Source: Actinomycetota bacterium (lineage in GTDB: Bacteria; Actinomycetota; CADDZG01; JAHWKV01; JAOPZY01). Taken from it: a stretch of 59,472 bases of DNA. The stretch lies in assembly GCA_025963875.1 (NCBI GenBank), contig JAOPZY010000023.1, forward strand, positions 1 through 59,472. The letters run 5' to 3'. Positions 24,263 through 35,616 of the stretch are shown here, in pieces. Within the stretch, counting starts at the first letter, position 1, and every line of letters starts with the position of its first letter. The position numbers and the translations under genes were made by a program. The notes under the pieces are model-generated. The model did no database searches. It was not told where the DNA came from and saw only the letters and a program-made list of their open reading frames with translations.

Positions 24263-25276
24263 GTGGGGGGGCGGAAGGCATGGCTGTTCGTAGGCTCCCT
24301 CGCTGCGCTGGCGGCCACCCCCCGCGGCCGCAGCGCCCTCAAAGGCGCCTTGGTGCTGAGTGAGGTCCTTCCGTCCCCCCTTCATCCTTTGTCGTGGGCC
24401 TCACGGCGTCCTCGGGCCAGCCGTATCGACCTGCCGCATGGCCCCGCCGACCTCTACGAGGGAAGATCGGGGGCGCCGGGGATCGTGCTCGTGCACGGCG
24501 CCAACGCCGGGGGGATCGACGACCCGAGGGTCCGGGACCTCGCGCAGGCCTTCTGCCGCGTGGGCCGGACCGTCCTGGCGCCGTCGCTTGTCCTCGCCGA
24601 GCGGCGGATGGACGCCGATGACGGCCTGCGCATCCTCGATGCCATCGACGAGCTTGCCGACCGGACCGGCCCCGTCGTGGTGGTCGCCTTCTCGTACGGC
24701 GGCGCCCTCGCCCTCTGCGCGCTGGCCCAGCGCCCGTCGATCCAGGCCCGCGTGCGGAGCCTCGCCACAATCGGCACCTACTACGACGTCGTGCACCTCA
24801 TCGAAGGAGTGACGACCGGCAGCGTCTGCGTGAACGGGAGCCTCTATCCGTGGCAGCCCCCTGCTGCGGCGTTGGGCGAGGTCGGCCCGCTGCTGGGCGA
24901 TTTCCTCGGCGGCCGGAGGCTGGAGGTGGTGGAGGAGATCCTCGCCAACCGCGACCCCCGCCGGACCGCACCGCTCATCGCCCAGCTCCCCGACGACGTC
25001 CGGGGCATGCTCGACCGGATCTCCCCCGCGAGACACGTCGACGCCATCCGGGTGCCCGTGCTGGCGCTGCACAGCCGGCTTGACCCCGCCGCCCCGGCCA
25101 TCGAGTCGGCGCAACTCGTTGCGGCGGTGCGTCGACGGGCCCGCTCCCGGCTGACCCTGGTCGGGTCGTTGCGCCATGTGACGCCGGTGGGGACCCTGTT
25201 GGGGTGGGTGCGGGATGCGCCCGGCCTGGTCCGGTTTGCCGCCTCGATCCTGCGGGCCCAGGAGCGCTGGGCCTAG
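24263..25276 (+). CDS. Alpha/beta hydrolase fold protein
   Basis: VLVHG, AFSYGG nucleophile elbow, LHSRLD, LRHV; TATGCT 7 nt before GTG (leaderless). Confidence 0.82.
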   Translation: MGGRKAWLFVGSLAALAATPRGRSALKGALVLSEVLPSPLHPLSWASRRPRASRIDLPHGPADLYEGRSGAPGIVLVHGANAGGIDDPRVRDLAQAFCRVGRTVLAPSLVLAERRMDADDGLRILDAIDELADRTGPVVVVAFSYGGALALCALAQRPSIQARVRSLATIGTYYDVVHLIEGVTTGSVCVNGSLYPWQPPAAALGEVGPLLGDFLGGRRLEVVEEILANRDPRRTAPLIAQLPDDVRGMLDRISPARHVDAIRVPVLALHSRLDPAAPAIESAQLVAAVRRRARSRLTLVGSLRHVTPVGTLLGWVRDAPGLVRFAASILRAQERWA

Positions 25277-25368
25277 GGCGCGCCCGAATAGGGCGTAGCT
25301 GAAGGGAACGACCGGTCCTCCTGCCGCTCAGATGCGGTTTCTAGTGAGAGGGCGCGAGCGGGGGCTCG

Positions 25369-25417
25369 GTTCTTTGCGCATGGCGTCGCGGCAACCGCAA
25401 CGTGGTTCGCAGAGAAC
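25369..25417. repeat. 49-bp palindromic element
   Basis: GTTCTTTGCG...CGTCGCGG-CAA-CCGCAACG...CGCAGAGAAC. Confidence 0.65.
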
Positions 25418-25437
25418 GTCCGCCGCCGGCCCCAAAA

Positions 25438-25489
25438 AAACGTTTGAGTAAATCCCGCCCCTATGGGGGCAGAAAATGCTCAAACGTTT
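25438..25489. repeat. About 50-bp palindromic element
   Basis: AAACGTTTGAG...GCCCC-TATG-GGGGC...CTCAAACGTTT. Confidence 0.75.
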
Positions 25490-25524
25490 ATAGAATAGCG
25501 TTATGGAGCCTTGGATGGCTCAGG

Positions 25525-26107
25525 CTACACGCCAGCTTCGGTTCCGAGCAGTGCTCCCACCTCGATGACGAGGTCGGGAAGGGCCTGGGGGGAGATCCGC
25601 TCGCCGGCAACGTAGCGCCGGAATTCCTGGTAGCCCTCCTTGTCCGGGGTGTGGGACGCCTCGATGCAACCCTCCTGGAGATTGACGATCCAGCACTCCG
25701 GGACCCCGAAGCGGGCGTAGAGCGGGAGCTTCCTCAGGCGGTCGTAGCGGATCGAGCTGTCGGCGACCTCGATCAACAGCAGGACGTCGTCCCCGATGGG
25801 GTGAGCGTCGGTGTAAAAGGTCGGGCGCGGCTTGAGCAGTATCAGGTCGGGCTGCGGCATCGAGCGGTCCCCGAGGGTGCAGGGGATTCTGAGGCCAGAC
25901 CACTGCCCGTTCGCCGGCGCCGCGAACAAGCAGGGTGAGGAGGTGGGCGACGGTGCCCGCGTGCGGACAGCCGATCGGCGCCATCTGGATGATCTCGCCC
26001 TCGATGAGCTCGACCCGCTCGTCGGGAAGGAGGATGTCTGACTCGCCCATCCGCAGGTATTCCTCGACCGTGAAGCGGCGAGGCCGGGGTTCCAGTGCCG
26101 TTGCCAT
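25525..26107 (-). pseudogene. Uma2 (DUF820) PD-(D/E)XK endonuclease, frameshifted
   Basis: N-half RRFTVEEY...RVELIEGEI..MAP is in one frame and C-half PQPD...LLIEVADSS...K..LYA..GVPE.WIV in another; one extra C in CAC-C-CTC at 25875-25877. Confidence 0.88.
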
Positions 26108-26124
26108 GGCAGTGATCGTAACGC

Positions 26125-28569
26125 TCAGATTGAGCCGGTGGGATAGGCGATCGGGCCCTCGGTCTGGACCACGACCGTCGACCCGTCGTTCGCCTTCTCC
26201 AGCACGATGAGGTCGTCGAGGCGGGCCTGGACACCCCCCACGTGGGAGATGACCCCGATGAGGCGGCCGGGCAAAGCCAGGCTCTCGACGCCGTCGATGG
26301 CGAGGTCGAGGCTGGCCGCATCCAGCGAGCCGAAGCCCTCGTCGAGGAAGAAGCAGTCCAGCCGGCTCCCTCCCTCCGCCACCGCCTCGGCCAGGGCCAG
26401 CGCCAGGGCGAGCGAGGCGAGGAACGTCTCGCCACCCGAGAGGGTGTCCGGCGACCGGACGACGTCGTTGGCGAGGTCGAGGAGGTGGAACTGGCCCTCG
26501 TCGTCGAAGCGGTACCTGCCGGTGAGCTGGAAGAGCTTCTCGGAGCCCACGCTGGCGAGGCGCTGGCGGTCGGCGTCGAGGAGGTAGGCGATGAACTTGG
26601 CGTCGGTCAGATCGGCCGCCAGCCGCTGGTACACGCTGCGGCGCCCCTGGATCTCCACCGTCCGAGCTTCGAGGATCGCCTGCTGCTCGATGGCCCGGCG
26701 TGCCTGCTCGATGCGCTGCCCCAGGGCTCCGACCGCCTCCGACGCAGCTTGCAGGGCGTCCTCGATCCGCTCCCGGGGCCCCAGCCCGAGCCGCTCCCGG
26801 AGCCCTGCGAGCACGTCTCTGCTCTCCGCCTCGTCGGCCAGGACCTCCCTGCGGAGCCTGACCTGCTCCTCCAGCATCGCGACCCCGGCGTCCCGGGCCC
26901 GCTTGGCTGCGCCGGCCAGGCTCCCGGCCTCGTCCTCGATCCCCGGTCCCTCGACGCCGAGGATGGTCGAGATCCGGATCAGCTCCCCGGCGAGCTGGCG
27001 CCGCTTCGTCGCAGAGGTCTCCAGGAGGCGCTGCGCCGCGTGTGCGGCCTGGGCGGCAACGTCCGCCCCCTTCCGCGCCGCCGCTGCATCCCTGGCGGCC
27101 GAGGCGATGAGCGCCTCCCGCCTCGCCACCTCGGCGGCTGCCTCGACCCCTGACCCGAGCAGCCTCGCCAGGGCCTCGTCCAGCTCGACCAGCTCCTTCG
27201 TCGCGGCAGCCATCTCCTCCTCGGCCGCCTGGAGCTTGGCGAAGGCCGACGAGGCTGCGCCGAGCAGGGCGGCTGCCTCGGCGGCTTGCTCCCTCGCGAC
27301 CCTGACGGCGGTGGTCGCCGCCTGCTCGGCCGCATCCAGCGCCTCCGGCACGGGACCACCGTCGGGAACCACGGTGACCTCCTGCGCGCAGACGGGACAG
27401 GGCTGCCCCGGTCGCAGCTCCGCCCGGAGGAGATGGGCGGCATGGCCCTCCTGCGCCGCGCGAAGGACCCTCTGGGCGGCCGCTGCGGCCGCCTCGGCCG
27501 TTGCGGCAGCTCGCTCCTGGGCTTCCAACGCCTGCGCCGCCCGGGCGGCTGCCGCCTTCCGCCTTGCAACATCCTCCCGGCGGCCCGCCGCTTCCGCCAC
27601 CGTCCGGACACGCCGGGACGACAGGTCGCGGGCAGCCGCCAGGGCCTCGCCGCCGACCTCGGACTCCTTCTGGACAACAGCCGCCTCGGCCGCCTCGGCG
27701 CGGTGTCGCGCCTCCTCGAGGCCGGCCTCGGCGGCTGCGGAGCGTGCCAGTCCGGAATCCTCTTCGGCGGCCAGCGCCTCGAGGACCGAGACCGCCGGGA
27801 TCTGCGTCACCGTCCTGTCGACCAGCTCCGACCGCCGGGCGATCTCCAACAGGTGCTCCTCCGCCGCGGCGACCACCGCCTGCGCAGCGGAGAAGGCAGC
27901 GACGCCCTCCCGCAGGGCGGAGACCCTGGCATCCCGGTCGATCCGCTGCGCCTCAAGGTGGGCAAGGAGCGCCTCCGGCTCGGGTGGAAGGGCCAGAAGC
28001 TCCGCCTGCACCGCCTTGAGCTCGACGTCGATGCCGGCGACCCGTTGCTTCGCGAGGTCTCTCATGGCGTCGACCCGCTCGTAGCGGAAGATGCGCTTCA
28101 GGATCCTGGAGCGATCGGTGGGGGTCGCCTTGAGGAAGCGGTCGAACTCGCCCTGCGGCAGGGTCACCGACGAGCAGAAGGCATCGAAGTCGAGCCCGAC
28201 GATGTCGGCGATGCGGTCGTTCACGGCCCGCTCACCCGACGTGTCCGGCGTACCCTCGCCGAGGCGCTTGAGGATCACCTGCGACGGACCCTCACGCCGG
28301 AGGACCCGGAGCACCTCCCAGCCCGTGCCGTCGACGTCGAAGACCAGCCGCACCCGGGCTACGCCAGCCCCCGAGGTGATGAGCTTCTTGGTGTCCTTGC
28401 CGATCTGGGGCGTCTTGCCGTAGAGGCTGTAGATCAGGGCGTCGAGGACCGAGGACTTGCCCGCACCCGTGGGGCCGACGATGCCGAACAGGCCCCGGTC
28501 CTGGAAGTCGAACGTCGTGGGCGTCCGGTAGGAGCGGAAGCCCTCCAGGGCGAGCTCAAGGGGCCGCAC
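26125..28569 (-). CDS. sbcC: SbcC/Rad50 SMC-family ATPase
   Basis: GPTGAGKS, LPQGEF, coiled coils with CPVC zinc hook, LSGGE, FLDEGFGSLD, ISH. Confidence 0.95.
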   Translation of the reverse strand: MRPLELALEGFRSYRTPTTFDFQDRGLFGIVGPTGAGKSSVLDALIYSLYGKTPQIGKDTKKLITSGAGVARVRLVFDVDGTGWEVLRVLRREGPSQVILKRLGEGTPDTSGERAVNDRIADIVGLDFDAFCSSVTLPQGEFDRFLKATPTDRSRILKRIFRYERVDAMRDLAKQRVAGIDVELKAVQAELLALPPEPEALLAHLEAQRIDRDARVSALREGVAAFSAAQAVVAAAEEHLLEIARRSELVDRTVTQIPAVSVLEALAAEEDSGLARSAAAEAGLEEARHRAEAAEAAVVQKESEVGGEALAAARDLSSRRVRTVAEAAGRREDVARRKAAAARAAQALEAQERAAATAEAAAAAAQRVLRAAQEGHAAHLLRAELRPGQPCPVCAQEVTVVPDGGPVPEALDAAEQAATTAVRVAREQAAEAAALLGAASSAFAKLQAAEEEMAAATKELVELDEALARLLGSGVEAAAEVARREALIASAARDAAAARKGADVAAQAAHAAQRLLETSATKRRQLAGELIRISTILGVEGPGIEDEAGSLAGAAKRARDAGVAMLEEQVRLRREVLADEAESRDVLAGLRERLGLGPRERIEDALQAASEAVGALGQRIEQARRAIEQQAILEARTVEIQGRRSVYQRLAADLTDAKFIAYLLDADRQRLASVGSEKLFQLTGRYRFDDEGQFHLLDLANDVVRSPDTLSGGETFLASLALALALAEAVAEGGSRLDCFFLDEGFGSLDAASLDLAIDGVESLALPGRLIGVISHVGGVQARLDDLIVLEKANDGSTVVVQTEGPIAYPTGSI

Positions 28570-29737
28570 CCAGCACCTCCTCCTCTAGCTCCCGCACCGC
28601 GGCGATCAGCTCCTCCGAGGCCGCCACCTCGTAGCCGCCGCGGCTCTTCGGCAGGGCATGGAACTCGGCGTACGCGGCGGCCAGCGAGCGCTCCGGACCA
28701 CCGGCGGCCGCCTGCCCGTCGCTGGGGTGGGGCTGCCACGTTGCCTGGGCGAGCACGGCGTCGGGCAGGAAGCTGCGCACCTCGTCGGCGATCCCGAAGA
28801 CCGGCCCAGCGGTGGTGACGCGGATGTCGAGGTAGGCGTCGGCGAACTCGCCCGCCCCGGCCCGGGCACGGAGCTGGTCCATCGTGTCCTCGACCCGGAG
28901 CAGCCGCCGGCCCGAGTCGAGCTGTTGCGACCACACCCGGGGAGGCTTGTGGGCCGACGCCTCGACGAGCACGACCTCCTTGCGGTGGGTCCGTTCGGAG
29001 AAGTCCAGTTGCAGCAGGCTGCCGGCGTAGCGTGCCCGGACCGCTGCCCCGGCGATCTCCTGCGGCCGGTGCACGTGGCCCAGGGCCGCGTAGTGGATGT
29101 TCGGCGGGATCGCATGGACCGTCGCGGCGTACTGTGGACCGACCTGGATCCTGCGCTCTCCCCCGCCGAGCTCGGCCCCCGCCACGAAGAAGTGTCCCGT
29201 CAGGATCCTTACCGCGTCGGGATCGAGGGCATCGCAGAGACGGGCGCAGATCCGCTGGACCCGCTGGTCGTAGCTCTTGAACCACTCCTCGGACTCCTGC
29301 ATGAAGTCCACCACCTCTGCCTCGTGGAGGAAGGGGAAGGCGGCGATGGCGGCGGTCTCGGTCCCGTCGCGGGACGGCACCGTCAGGACGCCTCCCTCGC
29401 TGGGGCGCCGGATGTGGGGGACGAGCAGGATGCCCAGATCCCTGAGCCAGGGCGCCAGGAGGTCGAGCAGGGCCACGGAGTCGTGGTTGCCGGCAATGAC
29501 CACCACGTGGCCGGTGGCATCCGCCAATCGGCGGAGGACGTCGAGGACGAGCGAGATGGCGTCGTAGGGAGCGAACGCCCGGTCCAGCAGGTCCCCGGCG
29601 ACGATGACGAGGTCGACCTTCTGGTCCCGGGCGATGGCGACGATCTCGTCGAAGACCTGCTCGAACTCGGCCCGCCGGTCGACCCGGCCCAGCTTCTTGC
29701 CGACGTGCCAGTCGGCGGTATGGAGGATCCTCACCAC
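28556..29737 (-). CDS. sbcD: SbcD/Mre11 nuclease
   Basis: HTADWH, AGDLLD, GNHD, GHF, ALGHVH, YAGS.LQLDFSE. Confidence 0.95.
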   Translation of the reverse strand: MVRILHTADWHVGKKLGRVDRRAEFEQVFDEIVAIARDQKVDLVIVAGDLLDRAFAPYDAISLVLDVLRRLADATGHVVVIAGNHDSVALLDLLAPWLRDLGILLVPHIRRPSEGGVLTVPSRDGTETAAIAAFPFLHEAEVVDFMQESEEWFKSYDQRVQRICARLCDALDPDAVRILTGHFFVAGAELGGGERRIQVGPQYAATVHAIPPNIHYAALGHVHRPQEIAGAAVRARYAGSLLQLDFSERTHRKEVVLVEASAHKPPRVWSQQLDSGRRLLRVEDTMDQLRARAGAGEFADAYLDIRVTTAGPVFGIADEVRSFLPDAVLAQATWQPHPSDGQAAAGGPERSLAAAYAEFHALPKSRGGYEVAASEELIAAVRELEEEVLGAAP

Positions 29738-29765
29738 GGGCCCCCCGCCGGGCGGGAGGCCGGCC

Positions 29766-29930
29766 AAGGTGCGGAACTTTTGGGACGTATAGCAACGTTT
29801 TTCTTCCGCACCTCCGAGCGGAACACCTTCGTGACCCTCACAACAGGTCCCCGCCCCGTGCCGGCCAAGGTGTTCCTAGCAGAAGTCCGCAACCCTTTCC
29901 GTGTCTGGCACGGTTTTCGTTGCGGACTTC
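29766..29930. repeat. Three adjacent palindromic elements (29766-29814, 29820-29876, 29882-29930)
   Basis: Outer stems AGGTGCGGAA/TTCCGCACCT, GGAACACCTT/AAGGTGTTCC and GAAGTCCGCAAC/GTTGCGGACTTC. Confidence 0.85.
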
Positions 29931-29983
29931 CTCACGGCCCTGCTGGCCGACGCCCCCGTCTGCGCTCACAACGGTGTCGGCCC

Positions 29984-31654
29984 TCACGACAGGCCCTCGA
30001 AGGGGTCGTCGTCGGCCACGGCCTCCTCCTTGCGCGTCGCCCACGGCGGGAACGGGAACGTGAAGACGAGGGGGGCCGGGATACCGGGCTGGAACAGCAC
30101 CATGGTGCCGGGCTTGAAGAGGCGGGCCCTCGCCCGGGTCGACGGCAGCATCCACCCGTACTCGCTGCGCTCCGCCTCGGCGGCGTCGAGGCGCCCGGTG
30201 ACGCGGATCGACGCGTTCTCCACGACCTCCGGGGCCACCCGGGATGCGGTCTGCTGGGCGCCGATGAGGATGATGCCGAGCGACCGCCCCCGCTGGGCGA
30301 TGTCGACGAGGGTCTCCTTGATGGGCGAGTGCCCCTCCCGGGGGGCGTACTTGTTGAGCTCGTCGAGCAGGACCACCTGCAGGGGCTGGCGCTGGCCCGT
30401 GGCCTCCTTGTCGGCAAAGACCTCGTCGAGGATGGCGCCGACGACAAAGCGCTGGGCGAAATCCTGCAGCTTATGGATGTCCACGACGCAGATGGTCTCG
30501 GCCAGGCGGTCCACGCGCCGGCCGCCGGGGCGGATGAGGCGCCCGATGCGGGCCTCGGCTGCCCGCAGGCGCCGCATGAACGCCTGGGCCGTCCCGCCTG
30601 CCACCCGGCCGGTCCAGGCGAGCTCGGGCTCACTGTCGACGGGGTCGAGGTGCTCCTCGATGACCTCGACCAGGTCGGCCAGGGATGCAACCGACCTTCC
30701 CTCGACCACGGCGACGCCGGGGTGGCGGGGGTCGGGGACCGAATGGCGCTGGAGCTGCGCTCGGACGCGCTCCTCGACGAAGGTGAGCTGCTGGCGGAAG
30801 TCGCCGGTCTCGGTGAAGAGGAAGCGCAGCAGGCCTCGCTCGATGAACTCGAGCGGCGTCCACGAGAAGGCGGTCACCCCCTCCATGCGGGACTCCGTGT
30901 CGGGGATCAGCTCCGGGCCGGCCCGCACCGGCGCCCAGAACGACACCGAGGGGAACGGCTCGGCCGGCACCCCGAGGAGGGTCCACTGCTCCCTTGCCTC
31001 CTCGGTGAGGCGGGCATTGGCCTTGTCGAGCCAGAGCAGATCCTCGCCCTTCACGTTGAACACCAGCGCCCGGAGGTTGGCGGCAGCGGGGCCGACGATG
31101 CCGTGGTGCGCCGTCAGCAGGCGCAGGAAGGCGAGGGCGAACGACGTCTTCGTCGCGACCCCCGAGACGCCCGAGATGGAGGCGTGGGCGCCCTTCGTGC
31201 CGTCGAAGAAGTCGAGGTCGACCCACAGCGGCGCCCCGTCCTTGGCGAAGCCGATGGGCAGGCGCCGCTCCATCTCGTCGGCGTAGAGTGCCTCGTCGCG
31301 GGCCGCGCCCGACACCCGCCAGGCCGGCTCGCCCGGGTCGGGCGCCACCCAGATCTCGGGGACCACGCGGATGGTCTGCACCGTCGCCGACCGGGACTTG
31401 TCGGCGTCCATGGTGAGCTCCTCGGCGATGCGGAGGGTGTCGGACTCGAAGCGGCCCCCCTCGTGCCGGGAGGCCACCTCGGTCACGACGCCGTAGGTGC
31501 GGACCGTGCCCGCCTTCGGCACCTCGGTCTCCACGACCACCAGGTCGTCGAGCTGCAGGTAGTTGGCCTCGTCGATGAGGATCCGGAACTCCGTGGTGGT
31601 GGCCGGCTCCAGGCCCAGCACGAGTCCGACCTGCTCCAGCTCGTCGTCAAACAC
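29984..31654 (-). CDS. herA: HerA-family helicase/ATPase
   Basis: N-terminal HAS-barrel-like region, Walker A variant ISGVSGVATKTS, FNVKGED, Walker B LLDELNKYAP, RGRSLG, AQQ; GTG 31654 overlaps the nurA stop. Confidence 0.9.
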   Translation of the reverse strand: MFDDELEQVGLVLGLEPATTTEFRILIDEANYLQLDDLVVVETEVPKAGTVRTYGVVTEVASRHEGGRFESDTLRIAEELTMDADKSRSATVQTIRVVPEIWVAPDPGEPAWRVSGAARDEALYADEMERRLPIGFAKDGAPLWVDLDFFDGTKGAHASISGVSGVATKTSFALAFLRLLTAHHGIVGPAAANLRALVFNVKGEDLLWLDKANARLTEEAREQWTLLGVPAEPFPSVSFWAPVRAGPELIPDTESRMEGVTAFSWTPLEFIERGLLRFLFTETGDFRQQLTFVEERVRAQLQRHSVPDPRHPGVAVVEGRSVASLADLVEVIEEHLDPVDSEPELAWTGRVAGGTAQAFMRRLRAAEARIGRLIRPGGRRVDRLAETICVVDIHKLQDFAQRFVVGAILDEVFADKEATGQRQPLQVVLLDELNKYAPREGHSPIKETLVDIAQRGRSLGIILIGAQQTASRVAPEVVENASIRVTGRLDAAEAERSEYGWMLPSTRARARLFKPGTMVLFQPGIPAPLVFTFPFPPWATRKEEAVADDDPFEGLS

Positions 31655-32603
31655 CCGCGTACTCCGGGGCGCGGGCCACGGCAGAGCGGATCCGGCGGAG
31701 CACCAGCTGGCGGTCGCCCTGCAGGTGCCACAGGCGCCGCTCGAGGGTGGCGATCGGGACGAGGTTCTGGGGCGAGCGGGTGTCCCAGAAGGGCTTCGAG
31801 GAGAAGCGCGGGAGGTGCGCCGCGGTGAGGTCGGCAAGCTCGACCGCCCGCGGGAGCGGCAGGGAGGCGCTCACCTCGCACCGCGCCACACCGGCCCACG
31901 GGTGGCCACCCGGCGAGGCAGCGAGGCGCAGGTACCACGAGTAGTGGTGGTGGCGCTGGTCCATAAGGGCGAAGACGGGCGTCCGCTGACCCGGTCCCAG
32001 TGCGGGAACGATGGGTTGCAGGCCCCGGTCCAGGTAGCCGCCCTCCTGGCTCTTGATGTAGCCGATGACGCTGAGCGGCAGCTCCCGGCGGAGCCGGCCG
32101 TCGGCGATGACGATGAAGCCCTCGTCGGCGAGGGCCGCAGCCAGCAGCCCCTCCCGCTCCTCCCGCAGGCTCTCGAGGGCGAACCGGACGTCTTCGGGCC
32201 TCGGACCCTTCGCCTGCCGGGACTCGTAGTCGAGCACATCCGAGACGAAAGGCATCTCGGCATGCCGGCCGGGCGGGAAGACGAGCGCCCGGTGCACCTT
32301 GGTCGCCCCGAACCTCGTGGCCCCGTTGGTCTTCATCGCCCCGACGCCGACCGATCCGCACAACCCGGCCACCAGCTCGCCGTCGCTCTCGAGAAAGACC
32401 CTGGCATCGACCCGGCTCACGCCGTCGAGGAACGCCAGCGGCGGGAGTACCCCGACGAGGGGGGTGACGGGCGCCCAGGGGACCTCTTCCACCGGCTGGG
32501 CCTGGCCTCCGGCACCCCCGGCTGCTTCAGGCTCGGGGGCGTCGATGCCGTAGGAGGTCCCATACTCGGGACTCCACGCCTCGACCCACATGCGACCAGT
32601 CAT
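31647..32603 (-). CDS. nurA: NurA-family nuclease (RNase H-like fold)
   Basis: AFLDGV.R, IADG.L, IGYIKS, GQRTP.F, YSWYLRL, R.PQNLVPI..LE..L; coupled to herA. Confidence 0.8.
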   Translation of the reverse strand: MTGRMWVEAWSPEYGTSYGIDAPEPEAAGGAGGQAQPVEEVPWAPVTPLVGVLPPLAFLDGVSRVDARVFLESDGELVAGLCGSVGVGAMKTNGATRFGATKVHRALVFPPGRHAEMPFVSDVLDYESRQAKGPRPEDVRFALESLREEREGLLAAALADEGFIVIADGRLRRELPLSVIGYIKSQEGGYLDRGLQPIVPALGPGQRTPVFALMDQRHHHYSWYLRLAASPGGHPWAGVARCEVSASLPLPRAVELADLTAAHLPRFSSKPFWDTRSPQNLVPIATLERRLWHLQGDRQLVLRRIRSAVARAPEYAGV

Positions 32604-32610
32604 GGTTGCG

Positions 32611-32633
32611 ATGCTACTGAGGGGTACCGACAA
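32611..32633 (-). promoter_or_regulatory. PafBC/RecA-NDp-type DNA-damage promoter of nurA
   Basis: TTGTCGG-TACCCCTCAG-TAGCAT fits TGTCGG-N10-TA-N3-T, 7 nt before the ATG. Confidence 0.8.
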
Positions 32634-32706
32634 CCAGAGGGCAATTTCTGCGTCTTCCCAAGAATTCTTCGCGCTCAGGCGGCAAAGCCGGAAGTATCAT
32701 GGATGC

Positions 32707-33534
32707 ATGCCTGCCATGCGATCCATCTGGAACGGGGCCATCACCTTCGGCCTCATCAGCATCCCGGTGCGCCTCTTCACGGCCGTCGAGGAGAAGAGTC
32801 TGAAGTTCCACCAGCTCCATGCCGCCGACAACGGGCGGATCCGCTACAAGCGGGTGTGCTCGGTCGACGAGGAGGAGGTCCCTTACGACGAGATCGTGAA
32901 GGGCTACGAGTACGAGAAGGACCGCTACGTCGTCTTCAGCGACGAGGAGCTCGAGCGGCTGCCCTCCGACAGCATCCGGGCCGTGGACGTGGTGTCCTTC
33001 GTACCCTTGGAGGAGATCGATCCCATCTATTTCCAGAAGTCCTACTACCTGGCTCCCGAGCCAACCGGCCTCAAGGCCTACCGGCTTCTTGCCCAGGCTC
33101 TGCAGGAGTCGGGCCGGGTGGCCATAGCGAAGTTCACGCTGCGCGAGAAGGAGCGCCTGGCCACCCTCCGCCTCCACGATGGCGTCTTCGTCCTCGAGAC
33201 CATGTACTGGCCAGACGAGATCCGCAAGCCCGACTTCGAGCAGCTCGAGAAGGACGTCGAGATCCGGCCCCAGGAACTGGCGATGGCCAAGACGCTCATC
33301 GACAACCTGACCGACCACTTCCAGCCGGATCAGTTCACCGACTCCTACCGCGGGCGCCTGGAGGCAGCAGCCGAGGCGAAGATCGCGGGCCAGGAGGTGG
33401 CAGTCGCGCCCACCGCCGAGCCCACCCAGATCCTGGACCTCATGGAAGCCCTCAAAGCCAGCGTCGAGGCCACGAAAGCCAAGCGTGACGCCTCGGAGGC
33501 GGAGCAGCCGGAGCCTGCCAGGGCGTCCGGCTGA
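32707..33534 (+). CDS. ku: Ku (NHEJ DNA end-binding protein)
   Basis: RSIWNGAITFGLISIPV, EIVKGYEY, IDPIYFQKSYYL, DLMEALKASV; TATCAT 6 nt before the ATG. Confidence 0.97.
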   Translation: MPAMRSIWNGAITFGLISIPVRLFTAVEEKSLKFHQLHAADNGRIRYKRVCSVDEEEVPYDEIVKGYEYEKDRYVVFSDEELERLPSDSIRAVDVVSFVPLEEIDPIYFQKSYYLAPEPTGLKAYRLLAQALQESGRVAIAKFTLREKERLATLRLHDGVFVLETMYWPDEIRKPDFEQLEKDVEIRPQELAMAKTLIDNLTDHFQPDQFTDSYRGRLEAAAEAKIAGQEVAVAPTAEPTQILDLMEALKASVEATKAKRDASEAEQPEPARASG

Positions 33535-33710
33535 CGGCCGTTCGCCCCTCTCTCGGGGACCGGCATGGGCCGGTAAGGCCCTCCCTGCGGTGAAATGGAC
33601 TGCGCTGGGGGGTCCAATTCTGGTAATTTGCGTGCGGTGCCGCACGGGCTTTGTTCGCGCCACCTGGGGGATTAGCGTAGAAATTAGTGGTTAAAAAAGC
33701 AGGGAAACCC

Positions 33711-33739
33711 TTGTCGGAGGCGCTTCGGCTCGCTATTCT
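33711..33739 (+). promoter_or_regulatory. Housekeeping-sigma promoter of whiB
   Basis: TTGTCG-N17-TATTCT. Confidence 0.55.
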
Positions 33740-33779
33740 CACGCTCCTATTGCCCCCGCGAGACTGTCAGGATTGAAGG

Positions 33780-34073
33780 TTGAAAGACGTCACGTTTTAC
33801 CTTGATCCCTTGTCATCCGCTGCATGCGACTGGCGCCACGACGCCGCCTGCCGTGAGATTGAGGATCCGGACATCTTCTTCCCAATCGGGACGACCGGAC
33901 CTGCCCTCGAGCAGATCGAAGCGGCCAAACAGATCTGCAACGACTGCTGCGTGAGGGCGCGGTGTCTGGATTGGGCACTCGCCACGGGGCAGGACATCGG
34001 CGTCTGGGGAGGCCTCTCCGAAGAGGAACGCAAAGAGATTCAGCACAGCCGGCGGCAGCCTTCTTTTGCCTGA
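33780..34073 (+). CDS. whiB1: WhiB1-like Fe-S transcription factor
   Basis: DWR..AAC, DP..FFP.G.TGPAL.QI..AK..C..C.V...CL, GVWGGLSE.ER; convergent with pdtaS as in mycobacteria. Confidence 0.9.
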   Translation: MKDVTFYLDPLSSAACDWRHDAACREIEDPDIFFPIGTTGPALEQIEAAKQICNDCCVRARCLDWALATGQDIGVWGGLSEEERKEIQHSRRQPSFA

Positions 34074-34140
34074 AACAACTTCATAGTTACCTCGGGGTAA
34101 TTCACCCCCCATTAGCGGTAGATGAACTCACCCCTCTACC

Positions 34141-35616
34141 TCACCCGTCCCGCTGCCGCTCCCCAATCCGAAGCGGGATGTCCACAACTGCAGTGACGCC
34201 CGGGTTGCCCCCATTGCTCGCTCCCGACGAGATGTTGATCTTGCCGTGGAGCTCGCTGCCCACCAGCGCCCGGACGATCTGAAGACCCAGCCCCGATTCG
34301 GCGAGGTTGAAGCCCTCGGGGAGGCCCTCACCGTCGTCCTCCACGAGCAGGCGAACGAAGCCGGGCTCCTGGCTCATACGGGCGACCACGGTGCCGCCAC
34401 CCGGACCGAACGCATGCTCGACGGCGTTCTGCACCAGTTCGACGAGGACGACGGCCAGCGGCGTGGCCACCTCGGCGGGCAGCTCCCCGGGGTCACCCTC
34501 GAAACGGATGTCGACCCGGCGGTCGGGCAGGGTCAGGCCGTCGGCGACCATGCGGATGATGGCCCGGCCCACCTCCCCGAACTCCACGGCTTCCCTGGGA
34601 TCACGGGACAGCGTCTCGTGCACGAGGGCGATGGAGGCGATACGGCGCTGGGCCTCCTCCAGGGCGCCCCTGGCCTCCGGACTGTCCAGCCGGCGTGCCT
34701 GCAGGCGCAGCAGGCTGGCGATCGTCTGCAGGTTGTTCTTGACCCGGTGGTGGATCTCCTGGATGACGGCCTCCTGACGGGCGAGCATCCGCTCCCGGTG
34801 GCGCAGCTCGGTGACGTCGCGCACGAGGAGCATGCCGCCGACGACATCGCGGTGCGGCCCCCGGAGGAACGGCACCGCGCGCTGCAGCACGACGGTGCTG
34901 CCGACCTCGACCTCGGCCTCCAACGGCGTCCCCATGTGCAGGGCGGCCCAGGCCAGCGAGGGCTCGACGCCGATGTCGGCGAGGCGCTCCCCCACGATGT
35001 TCGATACCACGCCGAGGCGCCGGTAGGCGGAGACGGCGTTGGGGCTCGCGTAGAGCACCCGGCCCTCCGAGTCGAGCCGCAGGAAGCCGTCGCCCACCCG
35101 GGGAGACAGCTCGGGATCGAGGGCCTCTCCCTCGAAGGGGAAATTGCCCTCCTGGACCATGCGGGTGAGCGCCAGGGCGCAGGACAGGTAGGTCTGCTCG
35201 AGCTGGCCAGGCCGGCGGTGGCCGAGCGGGATGCCCTCCATGGTCATCACCGCGATCACCCGGCCCTCGTACGGCACGGGGACCGCCTCCATCCGCACCT
35301 GCAGGCCGTCGACCAGCACGGGTTCGTCTCTGCGCCAGCTCCGCCCCTCGGCGAAGGCCCGGTCGATGATCGGCAACTCCTCGGGCCGCACGACCCGTGC
35401 GAAGGCATCCTCGGGATGCAGCGTCTGGGCAGTCACCGGGCGGAGCTGGCCCAGGCAGACGAAGCCCTGCGACGCCGACAGCCGGCACCACAGGAGGAGG
35501 TCGGCGAAGGAAAGGTCGGCGATCAGCTGCCAGGCTCCAAGGAAGTGGTGCAGGTGCGCGACCTCGGGCGGAGCGAGGTCGGTCTGCTCCCACGTGCGCT
35601 CGGCGACCGTCGACAT
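34141..35616 (-). CDS. pdtaS: PdtaS-type cytosolic histidine kinase (GAF/PAS/HisKA_2)
   Basis: [60 protein letters not shown]. Confidence 0.93.

Follow-up and report, generated by a model that had tools for sequence, protein, structure and literature searches.

A nurA-herA-sbcD-sbcC gene cluster with a PafBC-type promoter box, back-to-back with ku in an actinobacterial genome

Introduction

In Actinobacteria, the resection of DNA double-strand breaks is taught as the work of AdnAB or RecBCD. Here we describe a cluster of nurA, herA, sbcD and sbcC, lying back-to-back with the non-homologous end joining (NHEJ) gene ku, in the genome of an Actinomycetota bacterium (GenBank assembly GCA_025963875.1, contig JAOPZY010000023.1). 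The whole stretch of DNA analysed, 59,472 nucleotides (positions 1 to 59,472 of this contig), is referred to as the window.

The same four functions are encoded together in the herA-mre11-rad50-nurA operon of thermophilic archaea. Among bacteria, nurA-herA is separate from sbcCD in Deinococcus and Thermus, and a nurA-hepA-sbcD-sbcC arrangement in Oceanithermus profundus was noted by Blesa et al. 2017 (PMC5448004, accessible part of the text for both statements). A 2026 review, in the part available, describes bacterial nurA as lacking stable four-gene co-clustering (PMC13748450). Our literature search returned no account of the cluster in Actinomycetota, although an earlier mention in Iyer 2004 or Constantinesco 2004 is possible. 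The published consensus of PafBC promoters is tGTCgg(N10)tA(N3)T (PMC8635444, available text), and adnA is a canonical PafBC-dependent gene (PMC8682763, available text). NurA-HerA-SbcCD is not among the PafBC targets described in the accessible literature searched, supplementary regulon tables lying outside the search.

Gene content of the cluster

The five genes were called by GC3-guided open reading frame (ORF) calling combined with family scans. They are listed here with the intergenic features discussed below.

26125-28569, minus strand: sbcC, Rad50-like ABC ATPase, 814 aa, CPVC zinc hook
28556-29734, minus strand: sbcD, Mre11-like phosphoesterase, 392 aa, GTG start at 29734
29735-29983, minus strand: herA-sbcD spacer, ~250 bp, lower G+C
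29984-31654, minus strand: herA, bacterial-type FtsK/HerA hexameric translocase, 556 aa, GTG start
31647-32603, minus strand: nurA, RNase-H-like nuclease, 318 aa
32604-32706: divergent ku-nurA intergenic region, 103 bp, holding the palindrome AAGAATTCTT
32611-32632, minus strand: PafBC/RecA-NDp-type promoter box TGTCGGTACCCCTCAGTAGCAT, of the form TGTCGG-N10-TA-N3-T
32695-32700, plus strand: candidate -10-like element TATCAT, 6 nt before the ku ATG, called from sequence only and conserved in loci L004 and L005
32707-33534, plus strand: ku, bacterial NHEJ Ku, 275 aa

The stop of nurA and the GTG start of herA share GTGTTTGA, an 8-nt overlap, and sbcD overlaps sbcC by 14 nt, both read directly from the DNA. 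SbcC matches the Pfam models AAA_23 (6.9e-20), SbcC_Walker_B (6e-8) and SMC_N, all above cut-offs, and displays Walker A, Q-loop, CPVC hook, LSGGE and Walker B/D-loop. Its match to TIGR00618 (1.4e-71, 241.7 bits) is under the cut-off of 478.5, and the protein is short. SbcD matches TIGR00619 (2.3e-47, 161.9 bits, cut-off 77.65), and none of 122 homologues departs from its residues D8, H10, D48, N83, H84, H181, H220 and H222. Ku is a full match to the equivalog model TIGR02772 (1.5e-96, 322.8 bits, cut-off 150) and to Pfam Ku (2.1e-57).

HerA and NurA gave zero Pfam or NCBIfam matches, even at E ≤ 10, and RefSeq labels their relatives ‘ATP-binding protein’ and ‘hypothetical protein’. HerA aligns over residues 6-545 with chain B of the Deinococcus radiodurans structure 7F6D (E 1.1e-115 to 1.8e-115; profile 5.4e-176). 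Its Walker A (GVSGVATKTS) and Walker B (LDELNKYAP) are those of active DrHerA; these motifs and RGRSLGI of the arginine-finger region are identical or nearly so to DrHerA and invariant in 38 homologues. NurA matches chain H of the same entry (1e-20; profile 3.2e-54) and Thermotoga maritima TM1739 (3.9e-21), and all 126 homologues compared retain D60-G61, E151 and D168-G169, ‘DG’ being the definition of NurA motifs I and II in the accessible part of PMC13748450. An AlphaFold model of NurA built with 41 homologues (pLDDT 89.5, pTM 0.88) was searched with Foldseek: the best match was 7F6D_G (E 2.7e-18, TM 0.72), and 1ZUP (TM1739) was matched with TM 0.64-0.69. As modelled, NurA has the RNase-H-like NurA fold, and by homology to 7F6D a HerA hexamer would dock a NurA dimer. 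The genome holds one copy each of sbcC, sbcD, herA and nurA, and no second SbcCD was found with these queries. The five-gene arrangement is far beyond chance.

An earlier note, made from the letters of this DNA, had named the five genes with their coordinates, and these assignments were borne out by family models and, for HerA and NurA, by 7F6D. Its reading of overlapping gene pairs, of a divergent ku 103 bp from nurA and of intact catalytic motifs also stands. The profile and structural confirmation that it proposed for NurA and HerA was obtained in part: the 7F6D match and the NurA model agree with the assignment, while Pfam and NCBIfam are silent. Its label ‘archaeal-type’ had to be dropped for the proteins. 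Archaeal Mre11/Rad50 models score 1e-13/1e-25, against 1e-47/1e-71 for the bacterial SbcD/SbcC models, and all PDB entries returned by HerA/NurA profile searches were bacterial (D. radiodurans, T. maritima TM1739), archaeal HerA and NurA being absent. The arrangement is archaeal-like, and by these comparisons the proteins are of the Deinococcus/Thermotoga-like bacterial branch.

A PafBC-type box upstream of nurA

When the DNA between ku and nurA was aligned for seven loci, a conserved TTGTCGG...TAGCAT emerged, which corresponds to the PafBC-type box. Its -10 ends 7 nt ahead of the nurA ATG, so the nurA mRNA is probably leaderless. The strict box occurs once in the window, against 0.06 matches expected. 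A relaxed form (TGTC[GA][GTC]N10TANNNT) was sought from -200 to +45 relative to the first gene of the cluster in the 143 loci with sufficient upstream sequence and occurs in 78, on a background of 0.006 per 245 nt; 78 of the 123 relaxed matches in 5.14 M strand-nt lie at the cluster.

The genome contains 25 strict boxes, with a downstream ORF for 17, and ten of these ORFs were scanned. Five are recA, a dnaN-like clamp gene, radA, comM and the rmuC of an rmuC-NYN-adnA-adnB operon; the others are a thiolase-like ORF, TnpB, a binding protein and two unassigned ORFs. The genome also encodes PafC (HTH_PafC+WYL+WCX), and a second WYL gene directly upstream of pafC points to PafB. PafBC-dependent induction of the cluster by DNA damage is what the box and this gene set predict.

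The recA gene (contig C8:68-2236(-), 722 aa) carries a LAGLIDADG homing-endonuclease intein and has its box 82 nt upstream. Genes of the TnpB/IS605-OrfB type (Cas12f1-like TNB domain) and two near-identical small ORFs also have strict boxes 7-10 nt ahead of them (C26:8707-10145(+), C240:1495-2933(-), C52:444-748(+) and C115:32864-33234(+)), so transposon-associated nucleases may be among the genes that damage induces here.

No sigma-70 consensus promoter was found in 25900-34200, where terminator-like matches were uninformative, and an Rfam scan of 25000-35000 matched no family. Contigs of RNA-labelled soil libraries include short pieces 93-100% identical to ku, nurA, sbcD and sbcC, possibly from DNA carry-over.

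Distribution and gene order across Actinomycetota

HerA was sought at E ≤ 1e-30 in a sample of 401 Actinomycetota genomes and was present in 97, a tally that includes 11 unpublished genomes: 89 matches were strong, and eight were relatives only 31-33% identical, from family f14. A one-genome-per-species scan gave 80 loci, to which 80 further regions were added (77 with strong HerA from published genomes and three weak ones from f14). With eight duplicates removed, 153 distinct loci including the window remained, 149 of them with strong HerA.

All four genes are present and co-oriented in 124 of these 149 loci, in the order nurA-herA-sbcD-sbcC in 101 and herA-sbcD-sbcC-nurA in 23. Twenty others are cut at contig ends or not evaluable, leaving five true departures (L011, L117, L118, L133 and L142). 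Median intergenic gaps are 15-32 nt, the herA-sbcD gap of the 124 complete clusters having a median of 15 nt. The Actinomycetota loci contradict the statement, in the available text of the 2026 review (PMC13748450), that bacterial nurA lacks such clustering.

Among the irregular loci, L011 has nurA-herA without sbcDC within 5.3 kb; five (L072, L116, L119, L123 and L133) have 3.8-5.9 kb of other genes between herA and sbcD; L117 and L118 have a lone herA near an NHEJ module, neither sbcDC nor nurA occurring within ~9 kb. The HerA span of L154 (G222:C7) contains six stop codons and matches in two pieces ~290 nt apart, and this gene is probably disrupted.

Named carriers are Nonomuraea gerenzanensis, on a chromosome-sized record, and a Streptomyces linear plasmid. 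The latter locus (L195; Streptomyces sp. BB1-1-1 plasmid unnamed2, 411781-431385) carries herA-sbcD-sbcC-nurA, annotated as ‘ATP-binding protein / SbcD / SMC family ATPase / hypothetical protein’. Plasmids and phages seldom carry HerA relatives: there are six in 72,556 plasmid records and two weak matches in 50,697 phage records. HerA does not simply track taxonomy, members of GTDB family f4 falling into three clades, and the module has therefore moved horizontally; vertical inheritance only was rejected on these grounds.

The herA-sbcD spacer of the window, at ~250 bp against the 15-nt median, is unconserved even in relatives 92-94% identical (L003, L004). No PafBC box was found in it (29735-29983). 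It holds a CCGTG-N5-CACGG hairpin. Complex prediction for HerA-SbcD scored 0.40, 0.02 and 0.02, which speaks neither for nor against binding.

The neighbours of the cluster in the window are a gene for a PdtaS-type kinase upstream, a hydrolase gene downstream, sigma and anti-sigma genes, and a Uma2 ORF; the kinase and hydrolase genes are syntenic in relatives. The Uma2-family ORF, putatively restriction-endonuclease-like, lies directly downstream of sbcC (25525-25929(-)) and is also found in L004.

Ku adjacency

In 14 of the 149 loci, the cluster has a divergent ku on its upstream side. In a HerA tree (FastTree, 144 rows, with L154, which has internal stops, and short HerA fragments left out), these 14 fall in two distant clades, and the tree needs at least four state changes. 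In the 16-row clade of the window, ku adjoins in eight of 14 evaluable rows, as ku alone and 109-1164 bp from nurA; parsimony suggests that adjacency is ancestral in this clade and fits one loss. A further same-order case, by coordinates, is found in the unpublished genome G148. In six of nine rows of family f10, herA has a module of ATP-ligase, ku and LigD Prim-Pol at a distance of 0.8-4 kb. From the 14 loci in two clades, the link between the cluster and NHEJ genes is therefore real, recurrent and facultative. The earlier note had allowed that the adjacency might be unique to this genome, and it is not. The survey of linkage that it proposed upheld the four-gene cluster (124/149), with ku adjoining in only 14/149. 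Its implied contrast with AdnAB failed, as an AdnAB-like pair is also encoded in this genome, along with LigD (polymerase + ligase) and several extra Prim-Pol and ligase genes.

Same-order genomes without the adjacency have a single ku elsewhere in five of five cases, once ~500 kb away on the same contig, and the ku of the window is orthologous to the gene for the only Ku that relatives have. Ku was found in 219 of the 401 sampled genomes, unpublished ones included. It is present in 86 of 88 strong-HerA genomes (not in G055 and G238) against 132 of 312 without HerA, and in 75 of 77 strong-HerA genomes once unpublished ones are removed, comparisons that are confounded by kinship and genome size. 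A second Ku in the genome (contig C32:3461-4228(+)) is a divergent, fast-evolving paralogue, 62.5% identical; its gene is flanked by those for a sigma-70 region-4 protein and a GT87 glycosyltransferase, with no LigD gene adjoining.

Ahead of the window ku, no PafBC box or -26 element was found. In the lineage of the window, ku and nurA thus appear to have separate promoters of different type, a plain candidate -10 for ku and a PafBC-type box for nurA; in L010, L011 and L015, PafBC-like boxes precede ku and nurA alike. Between the two putative promoters of the window lies the palindrome AAGAATTCTT (~32660-32669), within GCGCGAAGAATTCTTGGG (~32654-32676). L003 retains this palindrome, L004 and L005 retain it in part, and it may be an operator or the ku -35 region.

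Discussion

We consider it likely that the cluster is a PafBC-controlled chromosomal operon that processes double-strand-break ends and is probably induced by DNA damage. We arrive at this damage-inducible repair operon mainly because of the PafBC box and the regulon-like set of genes that share it. SbcD-SbcC, the bacterial Mre11-Rad50, would recognise broken or protein-blocked ends and nick or clean them. Next, a NurA dimer seated on a HerA hexamer, in the manner of the Deinococcus complex, would move along the duplex while degrading it, giving the single strand needed by RecA. Transcription would start from the PafBC-type promoter (WYL activator, RecA-NDp) directly before nurA, probably as a leaderless mRNA, and would extend to sbcDC across the 250-bp spacer. 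From the type of its promoter, the operon would come on together with recA, radA and adnAB as single-stranded DNA builds up. The adjoining ku would be the ordinary NHEJ gene of the lineage, placed back-to-back with the operon under its own promoter. Physical cooperation of NurA-HerA with SbcCD, and any interplay with Ku, are inferred.

Several observations weigh against this explanation. The contigs from RNA libraries show only that fragments are present, and one of them (32530-32680) spans the predicted nurA promoter. Even the relaxed box is absent at 65 of 143 loci. The ~250-bp spacer could split the cluster of the window into two transcription units, and loss of nurA or herA in Thermus reportedly raises resistance to ultraviolet light. 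Members of family f4 are spread over three separate HerA clades that differ in gene order. The cluster on the Streptomyces plasmid adjoins Wadjet/JetABC-like genes (TIGR02680, TIGR02678, DUF2397) and an ImmA/IrrE peptidase gene. Among PADLOC models, HerA matches mad8 (1.8e-10) and the HerA model (1e-7), and SbcC matches mad3 (1e-27) and LmuB. The 2026 review, in its accessible part, takes bacterial NurA-HerA to degrade mainly foreign DNA (PMC13748450).

Three other explanations were weighed. Two independent operons, nurA-herA and sbcDC, could merely lie side by side in this genome, as the unconserved spacer with its hairpin, the separate nurA-herA of Deinococcus and Thermus (PMC5448004, accessible text) and locus L011 would allow. 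We think this quite improbable, given the adjacency in 124 of 149 loci with two gene orders and a herA-sbcD gap whose median is 15 nt. Where nurA comes after sbcC, as it does in the second order, the nurA-herA pair is interrupted by sbcDC, an arrangement difficult to account for unless the genes act jointly. An anti-phage or anti-plasmid module, in which HerA-NurA, an SMC-like ATPase and a phosphoesterase destroy invading linear DNA, would account for the PADLOC matches, the plasmid locus and the patchy occurrence of cluster types inside one family; TdpAB is also the fourth-best PDB match of the NurA model (TM 0.45). However, the PADLOC matches are to generic ATPase cores, no full component set of any described system was found by PADLOC, and NurA and Ku had no match there. 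The cluster holds the sole SbcCD found in the genome with these queries and is present in roughly one in four of the sampled Actinomycetota genomes, most carriers having a single HerA match. Its neighbours are housekeeping genes in a synteny shared with relatives, and apart from the Uma2-family ORF no defence genes were found among the neighbours scanned. Defence is less likely than repair because the promoter box is common to recA, radA and adnAB in this genome, and we hold it to be very unlikely.

A third explanation makes the locus a site of choice between homologous recombination (HR) and NHEJ, with Ku and the resection machine placed together and competing for ends or handing them over. 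SbcCD and NurA-HerA may, for example, evict Ku or cut it off for RecA repair, the 103-bp region setting the balance. Adjacency in two unrelated HerA clades of differing architecture, its ancestral state in the clade of the window by parsimony (8/14), the presence of Ku in nearly all strong-HerA genomes (86/88 against 132/312), and the PafBC-like boxes shared by ku and nurA in L010, L011 and L015 all favour it. On the other hand, 135 of 149 loci lack Ku in the flanks examined, ku lies elsewhere in all five same-order genomes without adjacency, a plain -10 without a PafBC box precedes the window ku, and the co-occurrence of Ku and cluster is confounded by kinship and genome size. We judge this explanation unlikely, and a regulatory HR/NHEJ ‘switch’ is conjecture. 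A related extension of the repair-operon reading, which we regard as rather doubtful, is that SbcD-SbcC and HerA-NurA form a ‘resectosome’ under PafBC control that moves Ku-occupied or blocked ends from NHEJ to RecA, in parallel to AdnAB. If so, the coupling to ku and NHEJ modules and the near-exclusive occurrence in Ku genomes would reflect this hand-over, and the machine would parallel, in prokaryotes, the MRN-driven removal of Ku known from eukaryotes.

As a probable damage-inducible operon for end processing, the cluster would give about a quarter of the sampled Actinomycetota a second resection machine, archaeal-style in its four-gene make-up and composed of bacterial-type proteins. It is missed by Pfam and NCBIfam and has been hidden under ‘ATP-binding protein’ and ‘hypothetical protein’. 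The PafBC box predicts damage induction directly, and would add a whole module to the PafBC regulon. Through its recurrent link to ku and NHEJ genes, the cluster makes the question of end protection versus end resection tractable in bacteria, with cultured carriers known in Nonomuraea gerenzanensis and the Streptomyces plasmid.

Comparison with known systems

The closest full-length relatives are the HerA and NurA of D. radiodurans (PDB 7F6D/7WRW; PMC9960219), which belong to the same families, share the Walker and DG motifs and are encoded by an adjoining nurA-herA pair. Here, the pair is joined to sbcD-sbcC, has a PafBC-type promoter and lies beside ku, linkages that the accessible Deinococcus sources do not describe. 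A bacterial four-gene architecture has already been published for Oceanithermus profundus; that report, in its accessible part, mentions one genus of Deinococcota in passing and describes no promoter, Ku link or phylum-wide conservation. The operon of thermophilic archaea has the same four functions in a co-oriented cluster, and the order in Sulfolobales (PMC13748450, available text) is the second actinobacterial order, herA-sbcD-sbcC-nurA. It differs from the present cluster in that the proteins here are of bacterial type, with no Pfam HerA or NurA match, and that the source appears to be a mesophilic soil habitat, as judged by soil metagenomes.

HerA-based defence systems (PADLOC HerA/mad8; TdpAB, PDB 8WFD) likewise combine a HerA-like ATPase with a NurA-like nuclease. 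The resemblance is one of weak profile and fold matches (E ~1e-7 to 1e-10, ATPase core only; TM 0.45), whereas the promoter box of the present cluster is common to repair genes. With the mycobacterial PafBC regulon, which includes adnAB, the cluster shares the box consensus, the -10 and a start codon that follows at a short distance; recA, radA and adnAB have this box in front of them here too, and the genome encodes pafC. The Ku of the window resembles that of mycobacterial-type Ku-LigD NHEJ in its full equivalog match, and LigD and extra Prim-Pol and ligase genes are present in the genome. However, in this lineage ku pairs with a resection operon and not with ligD, whereas family f10 has the whole NHEJ module by herA.

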